Assembly (NCBI GenBank): GCA_012523075.1
Contig: JAAYJF010000075.1
Coordinates: 21,009 to 85,008 of the forward strand
Direction of reading: 5' to 3'
DNA from: Clostridiales bacterium
GTDB lineage: Bacteria > Bacillota > Clostridia > Ch29
Length of the DNA stretch: 64,000 nt
The notes under the pieces are model-generated. The model worked only from the letters and a program-made list of their open reading frames with translations, had not been told where the DNA came from and ran no database searches. A program made the position numbers and the translations under genes. Positions within the stretch are counted from its first letter, which is position 1; every line of letters begins with the position of its first letter. Positions 3,483-60,832 of this stretch are shown here, one piece after another.

Positions 3483-3558
3483 TGGAGCTGGTGATGGGAC
3501 TCGAACCCGCAACCTGCTGATTACAAATCAGCTGCTCTACCGATTGAGCTACACCAGC
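3483..3558 (-). tRNA. tRNA-Thr (anticodon UGU)
   Basis: The reverse complement folds as a cloverleaf: acceptor GCTGGTG/CACCAGC, D-stem GCTC/GAGC, anticodon stem GCTGA/TCAGC with loop TTTGTAA, T-loop TTCGAGT, genome-encoded CCA. One C-A mismatch in the T-stem. Confidence 0.75.
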
Positions 3559-3661
3559 ATCTTGAGAAGTGGGAGGTGGGATGAGAGATGTGGGATTTTA
3601 GTATTGCTATTAAGCACTACCCGCATTCTCACCTCCCACCTCATGCTTCCCACTTCACATT

Positions 3662-3739
3662 TGGCGACCCGGAAGGGACTCGAACCCTCGACCTCCAGCG
3701 TGACAGGCTGGCATTCTAACCAATCTGAACTACCGGGCC
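3662..3739 (-). tRNA. tRNA-Asp (anticodon GUC)
   Basis: The reverse complement reads GGCCCGGTAGTTCAGATTGGTTAGAATGCCAGCCTGTCACGCTGGAGGTCGAGGGTTCGAGTCCCTTCCGGGTCGCCA, closely matching Firmicute tRNA-Asp. Encoded CCA. Confidence 0.85.
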
Positions 3740-3744
3740 GGATA

Positions 3745-3820
3745 TGGTGACCCATCAGGGACTCGAACCCTGGACACCCTGATTAAGAGTCAGGTGCTCT
3801 ACCAACTGAGCTAATGAGTC
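3745..3820 (-). tRNA. tRNA-Lys (anticodon CUU)
   Basis: The reverse complement reads GACTCATTAGCTCAGTTGGTAGAGCACCTGACTCTTAATCAGGGTGTCCAGGGTTCGAGTCCCTGATGGGTCACCA with a canonical cloverleaf and encoded CCA. Confidence 0.85.
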
Positions 3821-3984: not shown

Positions 3985-5382
3985 TTAAGCCTCGGGTTGA
4001 ATGCTGTCATCTGATTGGTCTATTATCTTCTTTTTCTTCCACCGACCCGATGCATAGTAAACCCTGCTCATAAGCATACTGAAAACTGTACTTAATACAA
4101 TCGCTATCCAGATTCCGTTGGCGCCAAACCCAGCCACTCCGGACAAAAATGCAGCCAGCGGAAGCCGTATAATCCACAGGGAAGTTATGGAGAAAATCAT
4201 GGTTGCCATAGTGTCTCCCGCTCCCCGCAAAAAACCGTTTGTTACAAACATGACCGCCGAAAACACGTAGGAAAGGCTAAGGATACGCAGCACCCGGCCC
4301 GCCTGTTCAAGCAACACTTTGTCGGTTGTGAAAAGCGCCAACACCGCCCCGGGAGTCAGCTGGGCAACTAGGGTAAGCACCACCGAAATTCCCACCGCCA
4401 GTATGGTGGACCACTTAACGGCCTCCCTCACGTTCTGTTCGTTACCGGCTCCAATGTTTTGCCCCGCAATGGCCGATGTAGCCATGGAAATGGATTGCGA
4501 AGGCATAATGGCAAACTGGTCCAGCCTGGATGTCATACCAAAGATGGCTACCACCTCGGTACCAAAGGAGTTAATTAAAGAACTGACCACCAGCATTCCC
4601 ACCGACACCACCGACATCTGGATACCCGATGGAATGCCTATCTTCACTGTCTTGGCTGTTATCTCCCTGTCAAACACAAAGCCTTTTAAGTTTATGCTCA
4701 AAAGATGGTCCCTGCTGTTCAAATAAAAAACAGCAATGAAAAAGGAAATACCCTGGGCAACGGTGGTGGCCAGGGCCGCCCCCGCTATTCCCATCCTGGG
4801 AAAAGGGCCTACTCCAAGTATCAGTAGCGGGTCCAGAACTATGTTTATGACGGTGGATATAGCAAGGAACAAAAGCGGAGTCCTGGAGTCTCCCAGGCCC
4901 CTTAATATGGCACTCACCGCATTGTAACCGAACATAAAAATGAGCCCCAGCAGAAATATGTTTAAATACTCGGCTGCCATGGCCATTATTTCGTCGGGAG
5001 TGTTTATCAGCCTTAGAATGTGTTTGTTGAAGGTAATGCCCAGCACCGTTGCCACCAGAGCAGCAGCCATTAGCAGTACCAAGGTATTGTTTATGACTCT
5101 TTTGACCATTTTTGTCTGTTTTGCACCTGTGTATTGTGCTATCAGTACGGTGGACCCTATGGTTATGCCCATTACCAGCGAAATTAAGACAAATATTATG
5201 GGAAAGCTGACCGATACCGCCCCGAGGGCCTCGGGACCCAGAAATCTGCCCACCCATATGCTGTCCACGGTATTGTACAGCGCCTGAAGCATATTACCCA
5301 AAAGCATTGGTATTGAAAAGGAAATAACATGCCCAAGCATGCTTCCCTGTGTTAAGTCGTAGCCTCCCTGTGTACCCTTCAT
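3985..5382 (-). CDS. MATE-family multidrug/oligosaccharidyl-lipid efflux transporter
   Basis: 465 aa with 12 predicted TM helices and typical MATE sequence (..GAALATTVAQGI..). AAGAAGGTG ribosome-binding site. Confidence 0.85.
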   Translation of the reverse strand: MKGTQGGYDLTQGSMLGHVISFSIPMLLGNMLQALYNTVDSIWVGRFLGPEALGAVSVSFPIIFVLISLVMGITIGSTVLIAQYTGAKQTKMVKRVINNTLVLLMAAALVATVLGITFNKHILRLINTPDEIMAMAAEYLNIFLLGLIFMFGYNAVSAILRGLGDSRTPLLFLAISTVINIVLDPLLILGVGPFPRMGIAGAALATTVAQGISFFIAVFYLNSRDHLLSINLKGFVFDREITAKTVKIGIPSGIQMSVVSVGMLVVSSLINSFGTEVVAIFGMTSRLDQFAIMPSQSISMATSAIAGQNIGAGNEQNVREAVKWSTILAVGISVVLTLVAQLTPGAVLALFTTDKVLLEQAGRVLRILSLSYVFSAVMFVTNGFLRGAGDTMATMIFSITSLWIIRLPLAAFLSGVAGFGANGIWIAIVLSTVFSMLMSRVYYASGRWKKKKIIDQSDDSIQPEA

Positions 5383-5464
5383 CCTTGCACCTTCTTTATA
5401 TTAAATCTGTCCCGTTATTTCGGTTCGTAGCGCTTCCATCCCCTTGGCCGGCACAAAAACCGGC

Positions 5465-6865
5465 TTAGCGGGCTATTTCCCTTGCCACTATTATTCCAGT
5501 CACCGATGCTTGCATAAGACCCCTTGTTATCCCCGCTCCATCACCTATTGTATACAGGTTCTTAATACCGGTCTGAAACCGGCTGTCAACCTCAACCTTA
5601 CTGCTGTAGAACTTGACTTCGCACCCGTATAGCAACGTGTTCCTAGAATAAAGGTTGGGTGCCAGCTTATCAAAGGCCCGCAACGCCTCCACTATGGAGG
5701 TCAGGTGCCGGTCGGGAAATACGAAGCTTAAATCCCCCGGAACGGCACTTTTTAAAGTGGGTATGGTGGTGGATTTTTTGAGCCTGTCCGGACTGGTTCT
5801 TCTACCCTTAAGCAGGTCCCCCAGCCTTTGGACCATAATGCCTCCCCCCGTCAGCATGTTTGCAAGCTTTGCTATATATTTACCGTATTCTATTGGCTGG
5901 TTAAAGGGCTCTGTGAAGGTGGTGGATACGAGCAGCGCAAAATTGGTATTAGCCGTACGCAAGCCCGGGTCGGAATAGCTGTGGCCGTTTACCACCACAA
6001 GGTCCTCCTCATAGCGTTCCTCCGACACCACTCCTCCGGGATTCATGCAAAAGGTTCTTGCCTTATTCTCAAAGGTGTCGGAGTAATATATAAGCTTTGC
6101 CTCGTAGAGGTCCCGGGTGAGATGGTCCATAACCGAATTGGGGACCTCCACCCTCACGCCAATATCCACCGCATTGTTACTGGTACCGATACCCAGCCGG
6201 TTGGCCTGTTCCGAAAGCCAGTGGGCTCCTCCCCTGCCCGGGGCCACCACCACATGGTTTGCCCCAATCTCCATGGCTTCCCCGTTTTTATGCCTTGCCC
6301 TCACCCCCGTCACCTTGCCCTCCGAAACGGAAATATCCTCAACGGTTGTAAGTTCCCTAAACTCCACTCCCTTGTCCATAAGGTAATCATACATGGCCCT
6401 GAGTACTTGGAAGGCCCTGTCGGTGCCAAGATGCCGGACCGGGCAGGGTACCAGTTTGATACTATGCCTAGACGCCTCATACACCAATTCCTCTACCCTT
6501 TTTTCGTTGAGACCGTGCACCTCCGGCCCTGCGCCAAATTTAAGATAAATATCATCGGCGTATTTTATCAATTCCTCCGCCTGCTCTGCGGATATATAGT
6601 CGGTTATATTGCCGCCCACTTCCGGACTCAGCGAAAGCTTACCGTCGCTGAAGGCCCCCGCTCCGGCCCAGCCGGTTACTATTGAGCACGGATCGCAGTT
6701 TATGCATTTCTTTTCCCGGGCGGGGCACCTTCTAGTGCTTATTCTGCGCCCTTTATCCAGCATGACTATGTCGCTGTTCCCGCGCTCTACCAGTTCCAGG
6801 GCTGTAAATATGCCTGCGGGTCCGGAACCCACAATTATTACATCAAATTTATCCTTAAGCGCCAT
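5465..6865 (-). CDS. FAD-dependent oxidoreductase (COG2509-like NAD(FAD)-utilising dehydrogenase)
   Basis: N-terminal Rossmann motif VIIVGSGPAG; 466 aa; AAGGAGGGG ribosome-binding site. Confidence 0.7.
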   Translation of the reverse strand: MALKDKFDVIIVGSGPAGIFTALELVERGNSDIVMLDKGRRISTRRCPAREKKCINCDPCSIVTGWAGAGAFSDGKLSLSPEVGGNITDYISAEQAEELIKYADDIYLKFGAGPEVHGLNEKRVEELVYEASRHSIKLVPCPVRHLGTDRAFQVLRAMYDYLMDKGVEFRELTTVEDISVSEGKVTGVRARHKNGEAMEIGANHVVVAPGRGGAHWLSEQANRLGIGTSNNAVDIGVRVEVPNSVMDHLTRDLYEAKLIYYSDTFENKARTFCMNPGGVVSEERYEEDLVVVNGHSYSDPGLRTANTNFALLVSTTFTEPFNQPIEYGKYIAKLANMLTGGGIMVQRLGDLLKGRRTSPDRLKKSTTIPTLKSAVPGDLSFVFPDRHLTSIVEALRAFDKLAPNLYSRNTLLYGCEVKFYSSKVEVDSRFQTGIKNLYTIGDGAGITRGLMQASVTGIIVAREIAR

Positions 6866-55631: not shown

Positions 55632-57899
55632 GTGCAGCTTTCGGATAATGCCATTAGGGTTTTGGAAAGGAGATACCTTACAAAGAATGAAGAGGGAGAG
55701 GTAATAGAGGCTCCGGAGCAGATGTTCCGACGGGTAGCCCGTACGGTAGCATCGGCGGAGGCCTGTTACAATACCGGCACCAACCCTGAGGAGCTGGAAG
55801 AAACCTTTTACCAGCTGCTTAGCAGCCTTGAGTTTATCCCGAACTCGCCTACCCTTATGAATGCCGGCAAGGACCTGGGGCAGCTTTCCGCATGCTTTGT
55901 GCTACCGGTGGAAGATTCCATGGAGGGAATATTCGACGCGATAAAACAGGCGGCAATAATACACAAGAGCGGTGGGGGGACGGGCTTTAGCTTTTCACGG
56001 CTCCGTCCCGCCGGTGCTACGGTAAATTCCACTGGCGGCGTGGCTTCTGGACCGGTTAGCTTTATGAAGGTTTTTAACGCCGCCACCGAGGCGGTAAAGC
56101 AGGGGGGCGTACGAAGGGGTGCCAACATGGGTATTCTGCGGGTGGACCACCCGGATATCCTGGAATTCATTAAATGCAAGAGCGATAATAAGGATATTAC
56201 CAACTTCAATATTTCCGTTGCAGTTACCGAGGAATTTATGAGGGCGGTGGAAAGGGGCGGGGAGTATGCCCTTATAAATCCCCGGGATAAAAGCATTATC
56301 CGGTACATAGATGCAAGGGAAGTCTTTGACCTTATAGTGGAAATGGCGTGGAAGAATGGTGAGCCCGGTATCATATTCATAGACAGGATTAACGAATACA
56401 ATATTCTTAAAAAAATTGGGGATATAGAGAGTACAAACCCGTGCGGGGAGCAAGTTCTGTTACCCTATGAATCCTGCAATTTAGGCTCCATAAACCTGGC
56501 CAGGCTGGTCAAAAAAGAAGGAGACAAGACGGTTATTGACTACCAAAGGCTTGGCAAAATAGTGGATGACGCCGTTTGGTTCCTTGACAACGTGATTGAT
56601 GTAAATAAGTATCCGCTGGAGTCAATCGAAAAAGCCACTAAAGGTTCCAGAAAGATAGGCCTTGGTGTGATGGGCTTTGCGGATATGCTTATAAGGCTAG
56701 GGATACCCTATGATACGGACGAGGCGGTTGCGGCTGCCGAGGAGGTTATGGGCTTTATAAACCGGCGCTCCAAGGAAAAGTCGGCAGAGCTTGCCGCGGT
56801 AAAAGGGAGGTTCCCCTTTTATCAAGACAGTACCTACGCGGCGCAAGGCATTGAACTTAGAAATGCCACCACCACCACCATAGCCCCCACCGGTACCATA
56901 AGCATAATCGCCAACGTCTCCAGCGGCATAGAACCCTTGTTTGCTCTATCCTTTGTACGCAACGTGATGGATAATGACCGCCTGCCGGAGGTGCATCCCA
57001 TATTTGAGGAAATAGCCAAAAGAAAAGGGTTTTATAGCCGGGAACTGATGGAAGAGATTGCCCGCAAAGGAACGCTGCGGGATATAGGGGGTGTGCCGGA
57101 GGATGTAAAAAGGCTATTTGCGACGGCCCATGACATAGGCCCCGAGTGGCACGTAAGGATGCAGGCTGCTTTCCAGAGGCATACCGACAATGCGGTGTCC
57201 AAAACGGTTAATTTCCCCAGCCATGCCACAAGGGAGGACGTGCGGAAGGTATACCTCCTTGCGCACAAACTGGGCTGTAAGGGAGTAACCATATACAGGG
57301 ACAAAAGCAGGGAAGAGCAGGTACTTAGCATTGGAAACCATGACGGCGCTCGGGGGGGTGCGAAGGGCGAAAAGGCGGCAGGGGCCGCGGGGAGAGAGAC
57401 CATAACCCCCAGAACAAGGCCGGAGATTACCAAGGGGCTTACCGAGAAGGTGAAGATTGGCTGTGGCAACCTTTATATAACGGTAAACTATGATGATAGT
57501 GGTATATGCGAGGTATTCACCAACCTGGGCCGTGCCGGGGGATGCCCCAGCCAAAGCGAAGCCACCAGCCGGCTTGTATCCATAGCCCTCCGGTCGGGGA
57601 TAAGCGTTGAAGCGATAATAGAGCAACTTAAAGGGATACGCTGCCATTCAACCATCAGGCAAAAGGCCAACGGAAACGAGGTGAAGGTGCTTTCCTGCCC
57701 CGATGCCATAGGAAAAGCCATTGAAAGGGCCATGAAAATGAACCGCGGAGCCGGTGCCATTGTTAAGGAGGACCTGACGGCCGAGGGTGCTCCGGCCAGG
57801 GACGGTTTAAAGGCTATATGCCCCGAGTGCAACGGTGCGCTGGAGCACGAGAGTGGCTGCGTTGTGTGCCGTAGCTGCGGGTTTTCAAGGTGCGGCTGA
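55632..57899 (+). CDS. nrdJ: Adenosylcobalamin-dependent ribonucleoside-triphosphate/diphosphate reductase (class II RNR)
   Basis: 755 aa; active-site TNPCGEQ; C-terminal Cys pairs [14 protein letters not shown]; GTG start with a GGGGGTG ribosome-binding site. Confidence 0.93.
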
Positions 57900-58079
57900 T
57901 GTGGTAGCAAATCTGCAGTGGAATTTTCATAAAAGGGGTTTACCAACGTTGAATATTATGCTATACTGTACTAGCAAAACAAAATATGGAAACAAAGGGG
58001 AGTAACTCGCCATTTATTTGGTTTTGCCGTCCGTCATCACGGCACCCACGGTGTCCGGGCGGTAATCTTTAAAGAGAGT

Positions 58080-58122
58080 AAGACCTTTATCCACTGCCTT
58101 GGATAGAGGTCTTGTATTTTTT
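58080..58122 (+). terminator. Intrinsic terminator / attenuator hairpin in the 5' leader of the P-type ATPase gene
   Basis: AAGACCTTTATCC ... GATAGAGGTCTT stem followed by GTATTTTTT, 50 nt before the ATPase ATG. Confidence 0.55.
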
Positions 58123-58171
58123 GGTCCCCAAAGGATATAACTATAATGTCAATCTGAAAGGAGAAAGCCGA

Positions 58172-60832
58172 ATGGTAAACGGGGAATGGTACACCTTGGA
58201 AAGGGAGTCTGTGGAGAAGAAGCTTTCTACTTCTATGACTAAAGGGCTTAGCCGGCAAGAAGCGGTCCATAGGCTGAAGCAGTACGGCTACAACGAGATT
58301 GCCCAAAAGGACAGGAAGACCATATTCCAGATGTACGTTGACCAGTTCAAGGACTTTATGATAATAATACTAATAGTTGCCGCAGTAATCTCGGGCCTTT
58401 TGAGGGAATTTACCGATGCGGTGGTTATACTGCTAATAGTGATATTAAACGCTGTTATGGGGGTGGTCCAGGAGAATAAGGCGGAGGAATCCCTGGCGGC
58501 GTTAAAGCGAATGGCGGCACCCAACGCCAAGGTGCTAAGGGGCGGACGCCACGACATAGTACCTGCCAGGCAGCTGGTGCCAGGGGATGTCATAATACTT
58601 GAAACGGGGGACCTGGTGCCTGCCGATATAAGGATAACCACAGCTTCAAACCTGAAGATTCAGGAAGCCGCCCTAACCGGAGAATCCGTTCCGGTGGAAA
58701 AAGACACAAAGCCCCTAGCGCAAAAGAACATCCCTTTGGGTGACCGTGTCAACATGGGCTATTCGGGGAGCATTGTGACCTATGGCCGGGGCAGCGGTAT
58801 CGTTGTGGGGACCGGCATGGAAACAGAAGTAGGCAAGATTGCCGAAATGATACAGTCTGCCGAAGAGGTGGAGACTCCGCTCAAAAAAAGGCTCCAGGCT
58901 CTGGGAAAAATCTTGGGCCTCTCTGCCCTTACCATTTGCGCGGTAATTTTTGTAGTAGGAGTATTATACGGAAAAGGGATATTCGAGATGTTCCTCACGT
59001 CGGTAAGCCTGGCAGTGGCCGCCATACCCGAAGGGCTACCGGCTATTGCCACCATAGTGCTTGCCATAGGCGTACAGCGTATGGTAAAACGAAACGCCAT
59101 AGTAAGAAGGCTGCCCTCGGTGGAGACCCTGGGTAGTGCAACGGTAATTTGCTCGGACAAGACCGGAACGCTCACCCAAAACAGGATGACGGTGGAGAAG
59201 ATGTATTACCACAGCGGTATTTGCAGCGTTGCCGAGGCCATTAATGGTGAGAACAAAAGCGACCTTTTCCGGTTGCTTGTTATGACGGGGGTACTGTGCA
59301 ACGATTCCAAGCTTAAGGAAAGCGAAGAGGGAATAATAGCCTTGGGCGACCCAACCGAGACAGCACTGATAGACCTTGGCCTCAAGGCAGATATAAACAA
59401 GGACACGCTGGAGGCGGAGCAGCCAAGGGTGGACGAGGTGCCCTTCGATTCCAAGCGTAAGCTTATGACCACGGTACACGCGCTTGAAAATCGTTACCGT
59501 GTTTATACAAAGGGAGCGGTTGAAGAACTGCTTAGGATATCCGACAGCATTTTGCAGGACGGGCGGGCCGTAAAGCTGGAGGAACATCACAGGGCCGCCA
59601 TACTGGAAACAAACGAGAGGATGGCACGGGATGCCATGAGGGTGCTCGGGATGGCCTATAAGGATATTGACACCCTTTCGCAGGAAAGCGGGGAGGAAGC
59701 CTACGAAAGTGGTCTTATATTCATAGGAATGATGGGAATGATAGACCCTCCGCGACCGGAGGCCTGCGAAGCGGTAAAACTTTGCAAAAGGGCGGGCATA
59801 AAGCCGGTAATGATAACCGGAGACCATAGCGTCACTGCCGTGGCGATAGCCCGGGACTTGGGGATACTCACCGGGGATGAGGAGGCGGTTACCGGGGCCC
59901 AGCTGGAGGATATGAGCGACGGAGAGCTGGAAGAAAGGGTGCGGCGCATTTCGGTATATGCCAGGGTCTCCCCTGAGCATAAGGTAAGGATAGTTAAGGC
60001 CTGGCAGAAACAGGGCCAGATAGTGGCCATGACCGGGGACGGGGTGAATGACGCCCCGGCTCTCAAGATTGCCGATATCGGTGCGGCTATGGGCATTGTG
60101 GGTACCGACGTGGCAAAGGAAGCCTCGGATATGGTCCTGACCGATGACAACTTTGCTACGGTGGTGGCGGCGGTTGAGGAAGGAAGGACTATATTTGCCA
60201 ATATTCTAAAGGCTATACAGTTTCTGCTTTCCTGCAATGTGGGAGAGATTTTGACGCTGTTTGTTGCCACAATGCTAAACTGGCACCAACCGCTTTTGCC
60301 CATTCATATACTATGGGTTAACCTAGTGACCGACAGCCTGCCGGCTCTTGCCCTCGGGGTGGACCCGGCGGAGAAGAACATAATGGACAGAAAACCCAGG
60401 GACCCGGAACGTAACATCTTCGATAAGGGCATGGTAATAAGGATAGTATACCAGGGGATAATGGTGGGGACCCTAACGCTCACAGCCTTCGTATTTGGCA
60501 GCCAAAGGAGCCTGGAGGCCTGAAGGACCATGGCCTTCACCGTGCTGGCGTTAAGCCAGTTGGTTCACTCTTTCAATATGCGCTCAAATAGGCAGTCGGT
60601 ATTTAAGACAGGATTTACGTCAAACAAATACCTTCTAGGGGCGGTGTTAATATCGGCAATGCTGGTATTTATTGTTCTCGAGGTGCCCTTCCTTGCATCG
60701 GTGTTTAGGCTTACAACGCTTAGTATGAAAGAGTGGATAACGGTAGGGCTGCTGGCCCTGGCTCCTATTGTAGTGGTGGAAACAGCGAAGTTTTTGAAAC
60801 TGAACACCACCGCAAATGAGTATGAGGCTTAA
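58172..60832 (+). pseudogene. P-type cation-transporting ATPase (Ca2+-ATPase, YloB/PMCA-SERCA-like) interrupted by an in-frame TGA at 60521-60523
   Basis: 58172..60523 encodes TM1-TM7 plus the DKTGT phosphorylation loop. After the in-frame TGA and two codons, 60530..60832 in the same frame encodes the TM8-TM10 region (..RTMAFTVLALSQLVHSFN..). AAAGGAGAAAG ribosome-binding site at the start. Confidence 0.7.

Follow-up and report, generated by a model that had tools for sequence, protein, structure and literature searches.

A leader upstream of a PII-type Ca2+/Mn2+ ATPase gene in a Clostridiales bacterium is very probably a four-way-junction riboswitch of the yybP-ykoY class

Riboswitches of the yybP-ykoY class fold into a three- or four-way junction in which the 3′ strand of the switch helix P1.1 doubles as a part of the terminator (PMC11087558, PMC6649816). 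A G-G-A in loop L1 lines the metal site and supplies a flipped-out adenine, for which a C-G pair of helix P3.1 serves as A-minor receptor; a C-A in loop L3 contacts the metal, the N7 of A41 binding Mn2+ in L. lactis (PMC6649816, bioRxiv 10.1101/553354). The AGA on the 3′ side of L1 has been termed invariant, and C40-A41 of L. lactis corresponds to C49-A50 of S. pneumoniae (PMC6649816). The yoaB riboswitch of L. lactis has been crystallised (PDB 4Y1I, cited in bioRxiv 10.1101/553354) and was also studied in PMC11087558. Experiments in L. lactis (PMC11087558) and S. pneumoniae (PMC6649816) have established that ligand-dependent stabilisation of P1.1 during transcription gives read-through.

Here, we examined a 64-kb stretch of DNA from a Clostridiales bacterium (the window), in which a gap of 272 nt separates the gene of a B12-type ribonucleotide reductase (55632-57899, stop codon 57899; Ribonuc_red_lgN, Ribonuc_red_lgC and TSCPD domains in Pfam) from that of a P-type ATPase (ATG at 58172). 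The gap holds four elements: a promoter-like site, a structured stretch, a terminator hairpin and a ribosome-binding site (Table 1). The leader is very probably a four-way-junction riboswitch of the yybP-ykoY (Mn2+) class and a transcriptional ON switch for a PII-type Ca2+/Mn2+ efflux ATPase. A riboswitch of this class with a terminator platform controlling the P-type ATPase had been proposed in the first-pass annotation of this DNA, and the proposal is corroborated by the score of an independent covariance model, by covariation, by alignment with the L. lactis RNA and by recurrence of the element at orthologous ATPase loci. The location of the leader is also that of the class, upstream of a gene type for Mn2+ homeostasis (MntP, TerC or a PII-type ATPase).

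Table 1. Features of the gap and of the regulated gene (window coordinates).
Feature	Position	Strand	Basis or remark
Sigma-70-type promoter	57939-57967	+	Consensus scan; hexamers and TG conserved in relatives
Promoter elements	−35 TTTACC 57939-57944; extended −10 TGcTATACT 57959-57967	+	17-nt spacer
Leader aptamer, six helices (P1.1, P1.2, P2, P3.1, P3.2, P4)	57992-58090	+	Four-way junction
P1.1 switch helix, 5′ strand (A57992, A57994-G57998)	57992-57998	+	Pairs with 58084-58090
L1, 5′ strand GGAGUA	57999-58004	+	Invariant in alignments; identical in the L. lactis yoaB riboswitch
P1.2, 5′ strand ACUC	58005-58008	+	Pairs with GAGU 58076-58079
P2 hairpin CCA / UGG	58010-58021 (loop 58013-58018)	+	Covarying pairs
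P3.1, 5′ strand	58024-58033	+	10 bp with 58056-58065
L3 bulge UCAUCAC, 7 nt	58034-58040	+	C-A invariant
P3.2 hairpin, 6 bp, loop CAC	58041-58055	+	Compensatory changes in 4 of 5 modelled pairs
P3.1, 3′ strand	58056-58065	+	Same covariation basis as the 5′ strand
P4 mini-hairpin UCU / AGA, loop UUAA	58066-58075	+	Closes the four-way junction
P1.2 3′ strand GAGU and L1 3′ strand AAGA	58076-58079 and 58080-58083	+	Invariant in alignments
P1.1, 3′ strand CCUUUAU	58084-58090	+	Common to P1.1 and terminator stem
Intrinsic terminator	58078-58122	+	Relatives have a terminator at the same place
Ribosome-binding site AAAGGAG	58157-58163	+	Sequence; conserved in relatives
PII-type (LMCA1 / PMR1-SPCA-like) Ca2+/Mn2+ P-type ATPase gene	58172-60832	+	Pfam, PDB, NCBIfam

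The closest comparison is with L. lactis yoaB, whose sequence is listed among the oligonucleotides of PMC11087558. Both RNAs form a four-way junction with P1.1, L1, P1.2, P2, P3.1, L3, P3.2 and P4, and their alignment shows no difference in the blocks AAGGGGAGUA, CGUCA and AAGACCUU. The family hallmark GGGGAGUA, which is made up of G57997-G57998 and the GGAGUA of L1 (57997-58004) and went unmentioned in the first-pass annotation, is identical in the two RNAs and invariant in an alignment of 12 leaders. In both, L3 is 7 nt long and begins with UCA, the 3′ side has AAGACC, an intrinsic terminator includes the P1.1 3′ strand, and a P-type ATPase is encoded downstream. The two differ in P1.2, which has 4 bp in the window (ACUC/GAGU) and was read as a short GC/GC in L. 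lactis, and in the remainder of L3, which is UCAC in the window and AUUC in L. lactis. The sequences of P2, P3 and P4 differ entirely, P4 being only 3 bp long in the window.

Support for the individual helices is graded. In P1.1, which forms in the minimum free energy (MFE) fold of the aptamer alone, the G-C pairs are invariant and the outer pairs covary (AU/GC/UA/CG), with a mismatch at one position (C57993 / A58089). P1.2 is invariant within the close group and has compensatory changes in all four of its pairs among 38 distinct leaders, and P2 covaries, for example as CCAU/AUGG versus CCGCU/AGCGG. The GC-rich segment GCCGTCCGTCATCACGGCACCCACGGTGTCCGGGCGG (58026-58062) makes helix P3, of which P3.1 has 98-99% of its alignment cells paired and compensatory changes in 9 of 10 pairs. 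P4 is the least supported helix, with 69% of cells paired in a plain MAFFT alignment and 86% in a model-fitted one; its sequence is variable and the hairpin is found in most relatives. The motif AAAGAGAGTAAG (58071-58082), which the first-pass annotation had likened to the conserved loop of the class, is in fact the 3′ half of P4 followed by GAGU and the start of AAGA.

All functionally defined residues of the class are present in the window: G57999-G58000-A58001, C58035-A58036, A58081-G58082-A58083 and C58032-G58057. The 5′ strand of L1 is the counterpart of G16-G17-A18 in S. pneumoniae mgtA, and the invariant AGA stands directly 5′ of CC 58084-58085 in the P1.1 3′ strand. The pair C58032-G58057, just above L3 in P3.1, is the predicted A-minor receptor, with C46-G83 as its S. 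pneumoniae counterpart; it is CG in all of the 12 leaders of the unfitted alignment and in 35 of 36 in the fitted alignment. The predicted metal-contacting C58035-A58036 occurs without exception in the 39 aligned leaders and is equivalent to L. lactis C40-A41 (PMC6649816; A41U oligonucleotide in PMC11087558). We had considered that the window might represent a natural A41U variant with altered metal specificity, an idea that arose from the numbering of L3 after a crystal construct and that is refuted by the A41U primer (PMC11087558). Since A41 directly follows the C (PMC11087558, PMC6649816) and A58036 is invariant, the window is canonical at this site and the idea was rejected. The nucleotide after the invariant A (U58037 in the window) varies by clade: the window clade, Caldicoprobacter and others have U, L. 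lactis-like leaders and the Lactobacillaceae have A, and L166, L061 and L046 have G.

With S. pneumoniae mgtA (PMC6649816) the window shares the L1 and L3 residues, a terminator-type ON switch and a PII-type Ca2+/Mn2+ ATPase downstream. The pneumococcal and Lactobacillaceae versions differ in being three-way junctions in which UNAAA replaces P4 (PMC6649816). The window carries the P4 hairpin and does not match the Rfam family RF02617, and so stands outside the three-way-junction mgtA subtype.

A protein search with the ATPase, limited to one genome per species, gave 80 loci at 50-90% amino-acid identity, and at most of these a motif search found GGG(G)AGUAAC ... GAGA(C/GUAAGAC)CUU and a terminator directly 5′ of the pump gene. 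Additional leaders were sought by scanning metagenomes with the 15-mer GGGGAGTAACTCGCC, which retrieved 120 stretches; 10 passed a filter for the 3′ motif of the family, and the other 110 failed it and mostly look like chance matches. Eight of the 10, seven of them distinct, were useful leaders of the window type (L103, L105, L116, L119, L144, L159, L166 and L199). Twelve leaders were aligned with plain MAFFT, and the six-helix structure was drawn on them by hand; 93.8% of the cells were standard pairs, compared with 31-43% when the partners were slid by 1-3 columns. In the same alignment 17 of 34 pairs had changed on both sides, and the covariation score was reached by none of 500 shuffles. 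Plain MAFFT misaligned P3 of L105, L119 and L199, and these were aligned via a covariance model.

A first covariance model (R1), built from the 12-leader alignment, recovered 39 leaders with 38 distinct sequences; among the latter, 93.4% of cells were paired and 30 of 34 pairs had compensatory changes, figures from a model-fitted alignment that leans towards the structure. For a second model (R2), 30 leaders were used, to the exclusion of the window and of its close relatives L001-L004, L010, L116, L144 and L159. When run against both strands of the 64 kb, R2 found 57992-58091 with 75.4 bits and E 2.7e-17, the next match having E 3.4, where the E-values are rough owing to a shortened calibration. 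R2 located the element at 55 of the 80 orthologous loci; it invariably shared the strand of the ATPase gene and in most cases lay 50-400 nt 5′ of the start. That orthologous ATPase genes should be preceded by the same leader structure was a point on which the first-pass annotation had made its proposal depend, and such conservation is strongly evident.

Aptamers of the same type also stand 5′ of a gene for a small hydrophobic protein (MTAFWI...) in two contigs from metagenomes, at 1180-1305 (−) in L082 and 4742-4869 (+) in L138. The Nitrospirae locus L061 has a model-detected copy at 820-931 and a motif-level candidate at about 1958-2052 5′ of the ATPase gene.

Rfam was of little help in this branch of the family. 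At gathering thresholds, Rfam 15 found three tRNAs and nothing else in the 64-kb window; the three form a cluster at 3486-3820 (−) with 64-71 bits. A permissive scan of 57850-58250 (E up to 10) gave a correctly placed but sub-threshold match to RF00080 (Manganese, yybP-ykoY), with 16.1 bits against a gathering threshold of 45 and E 0.018, in which the model blocks GGGGAGUAGC and GUCAACAUAC are laid against GGGGAGUA and against GUCAUCA of L3. The M-box and NiCo riboswitch models had no match in this segment at E up to 10, nor had RF02617 (SSRC10) any match to the window at the same limit. The remaining permissive matches, to miRNA and snoRNA families, were chance matches caused by the terminator hairpin. 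The Rfam check that the first-pass annotation had suggested came out negative at the gathering threshold.

This outcome reaches well beyond the window: at the gathering threshold RF00080 found none of 21 ATPase-linked leaders (the window and 20 related loci), it had no match at 10 loci at E up to 1, and it had no match to the Sporomusa leader L056 (1909-2002) at E up to 10. The P3/L3 core of L056 resembles the crystallised L. lactis RNA. Since RF00080 misses related leaders including L056, the Rfam negative is regarded as a limit of the model and uninformative for this branch, and since the leader structure is conserved 5′ of orthologues, the riboswitch idea is not refuted by it. RF02617 itself matches Dellaglioa L064 (2321-2446) and L073 (2320-2446) at 82 and 73 bits, and Lactobacillaceae relatives also match. 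To judge from its consensus and its matches, this ‘SSRC10’ family (Streptococcus sRNA 10) seems to represent the mgtA-type riboswitch with a three-way junction, together with its terminator; the RNA is named SN44 in PMC6649816. Between RF00080 and RF02617, the curation of Rfam seems to have left a gap or an overlap.

The promoter match is weak by itself, as a scan of 1.3 kb gave three promoter-like sites where 1.3 are expected. Both hexamers and the TG are, however, kept in L001, L002, L003 and L159, among which the spacer differs; the weak SigA promoter of the first-pass annotation is thereby upheld, with its limits moved from about 57933-57966 to those of Table 1. Transcription would start at about 57974-57976. 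The order reductase, riboswitch, ATPase is kept in L001, L002 and L159. In L003, the closest culture-independent relative, an insertion of about 34 nt that forms a hairpin (GGGGGACA...UGUCCCC, at about 2270-2305) lies between promoter and aptamer, and a group II intron (RF02001, RF01998, RF00029) occupies 5279-6808, 3′ of the ATPase gene. At the other end of the gap, GGAG 58160-58163 ends 8 nt 5′ of the ATG.

The terminator has a 16-bp stem (58078-58093 / 58100-58115) and a 6-nt loop (58094-58099), followed by AUUUUUU to 58122, and the hairpin by itself has a folding energy of −21 kcal/mol. The hairpin and its U-run had been recognised from the start; the stem begins at 58078 and not at 58080, and the structure ends about 35-40 nt before the ribosome-binding site where 50 had been given. 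The segment 58078-58093 is common to the terminator stem and to the 3′ strands of P1.2, L1 and P1.1, and in L. lactis the P1.1 3′ strand likewise overlaps the terminator (PMC11087558). The fold of the 206-nt leader has z = −4.4 relative to dinucleotide shuffles, none of 200 shuffles being as good, in agreement with the structured leader described initially. The MFE structure of the aptamer alone is essentially the proposed junction. When the terminator segment is included, the terminator state (−43.5 kcal/mol) is favoured over the aptamer state (−27.3 kcal/mol) by about 16 kcal/mol, so that the default outcome would be termination, as fits a default-OFF switch. In the full-leader MFE fold the U-run of the terminator can pair with a downstream A-rich stretch in 58116-58150 (UAUUUUUUGG / CCAAAGGAUAUA), and a GAUAAUAAC-like sequence in this segment is kept among close relatives.

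A mechanism can be proposed by analogy with the L. lactis and S. pneumoniae members, from which metal binding, tertiary docking, Mn2+ as the ligand and the ON direction are inferred. Transcription would begin at the conserved promoter, about 17 nt 5′ of the aptamer. At low free Mn2+, the terminator hairpin (58078-58115) would capture the 3′ strands of P1.1 and L1 and a part of that of P1.2, and RNA polymerase would halt at the U-run. When Mn2+ rises, L1 (GGAGUA / AAGA) and L3 (C58035-A58036) would hold the metal between them, with docking of the two helical legs and stacking of P1.2 on P1.1. P1.1 stabilised in this way would prevent strand invasion by the terminator, permitting read-through into the ATPase gene and export of the excess metal.

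The ATPase has Listeria LMCA1 (E 6e-208) and human SPCA1 (E 2e-168) as its closest solved structures and a PMR1-type model as its best NCBIfam match, and it is of the pump type that yoaB encodes in L. lactis and mgtA in S. pneumoniae. Its frame is interrupted by a TGA at 60521-60523; in five close orthologues, L001-L004 and L010, this codon is one for Gly (GGA, GGC or GGT). A further 102 codons follow in frame (60524-60832) and encode the last transmembrane helices, in the second half of Cation_ATPase_C; GGAGG at 60513-60517 and an ATG at 60530 could permit a restart. The same TGA occurs in the near-identical anaerobic-digester metagenome contig L201, which has 1 mismatch in 5352 nt. A recoded TGA, read as Gly or Trp, was rejected as an explanation, since 10 of the 32 long ORFs in the window have TGA as their stop codon. 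The riboswitch is intact, but the pump gene may have split or have recently become a pseudogene, and the switch may then control a crippled gene in this strain.

Because the S. pneumoniae homologue prefers Ca2+ in vitro and the pump is of the Ca2+ type, Mn2+ as the physiological signal is deduced from related systems. It is conceivable, though unlikely, that the same fold serves another signal and that this subgroup senses Ca2+, or Ca2+ together with Mn2+, as a switch for Ca2+ efflux. The similarity of the pump to the Listeria Ca2+-ATPase LMCA1 points in this direction, as does the in vitro affinity of the S. pneumoniae mgtA aptamer, with a Kd of 1.7 uM for Ca2+ and 54 uM for Mn2+, a difference of about 30-fold (PMC6649816). 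In S. pneumoniae and in a B. subtilis reporter, however, robust activation came from Mn2+ only, both in vitro and in vivo, and MgtA was not induced under Ca2+ stress (PMC6649816). The discriminator adenine A58036 is moreover kept and would, by analogy, offer a soft N7 ligand for Mn2+, and pumps of the SPCA/PMR1 type carry Mn2+ too (PMC6649816). That the four-way-junction subgroup in front of LMCA1-like pumps of anaerobic Clostridia is tuned in vivo to Ca2+, or to both metals, is a speculation to which we assign a slim chance; if true, it would be a natural Ca2+-responsive riboswitch.

Two further explanations do without metal sensing in cis. The hairpin and U-run could merely terminate the upstream reductase gene, the rest of the leader being unregulated spacer. 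No other terminator-like site was found between the reductase stop (57899) and 58078, and with the gene order conserved in the three relatives named above, the hairpin may indeed also end reductase transcripts. As a full account this is very improbable: aptamer and terminator precede ATPase orthologues in many genera, in a comparison that covered the ATPase side, the great majority of aptamer pairs covary, a conserved promoter separates the reductase gene from the aptamer, and the overlap with P1.1 is the same as in validated switches (PMC11087558). That the terminated leader transcript of about 150 nt acts mainly in trans as a small RNA, and not as a cis regulator, is hardly credible given that the element is always immediately 5′ of a pump gene and co-oriented with it. 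This possibility draws on the listing of the Streptococcus version as an sRNA in Rfam (SSRC10, RF02617) and on a preprint on S. aureus metal homeostasis, whose abstract reports that a cis-acting and a trans-acting regulatory RNA interact and whose title refers to an sRNA-riboswitch interaction. A cis-acting riboswitch of the yybP-ykoY class accounts best for the observations.

The leader adds one more case to a riboswitch class that is well characterised, in a genomic context already known for it. The current Rfam model under-detects this branch, and annotation by Rfam only would leave such leaders blank. Some members of the family seem, moreover, to be listed under ‘sRNA’ (SSRC10). The Rfam half of the rule by which the first-pass annotation would have given up its proposal would have thrown out a true riboswitch. 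For the organism, the analysis assigns a mechanism, metal-induced antitermination, to a generic ‘cation ATPase’ of an uncultivated anaerobic-digester Bacillota, in which its likely role is Mn2+ detoxification and possibly Ca2+ efflux.
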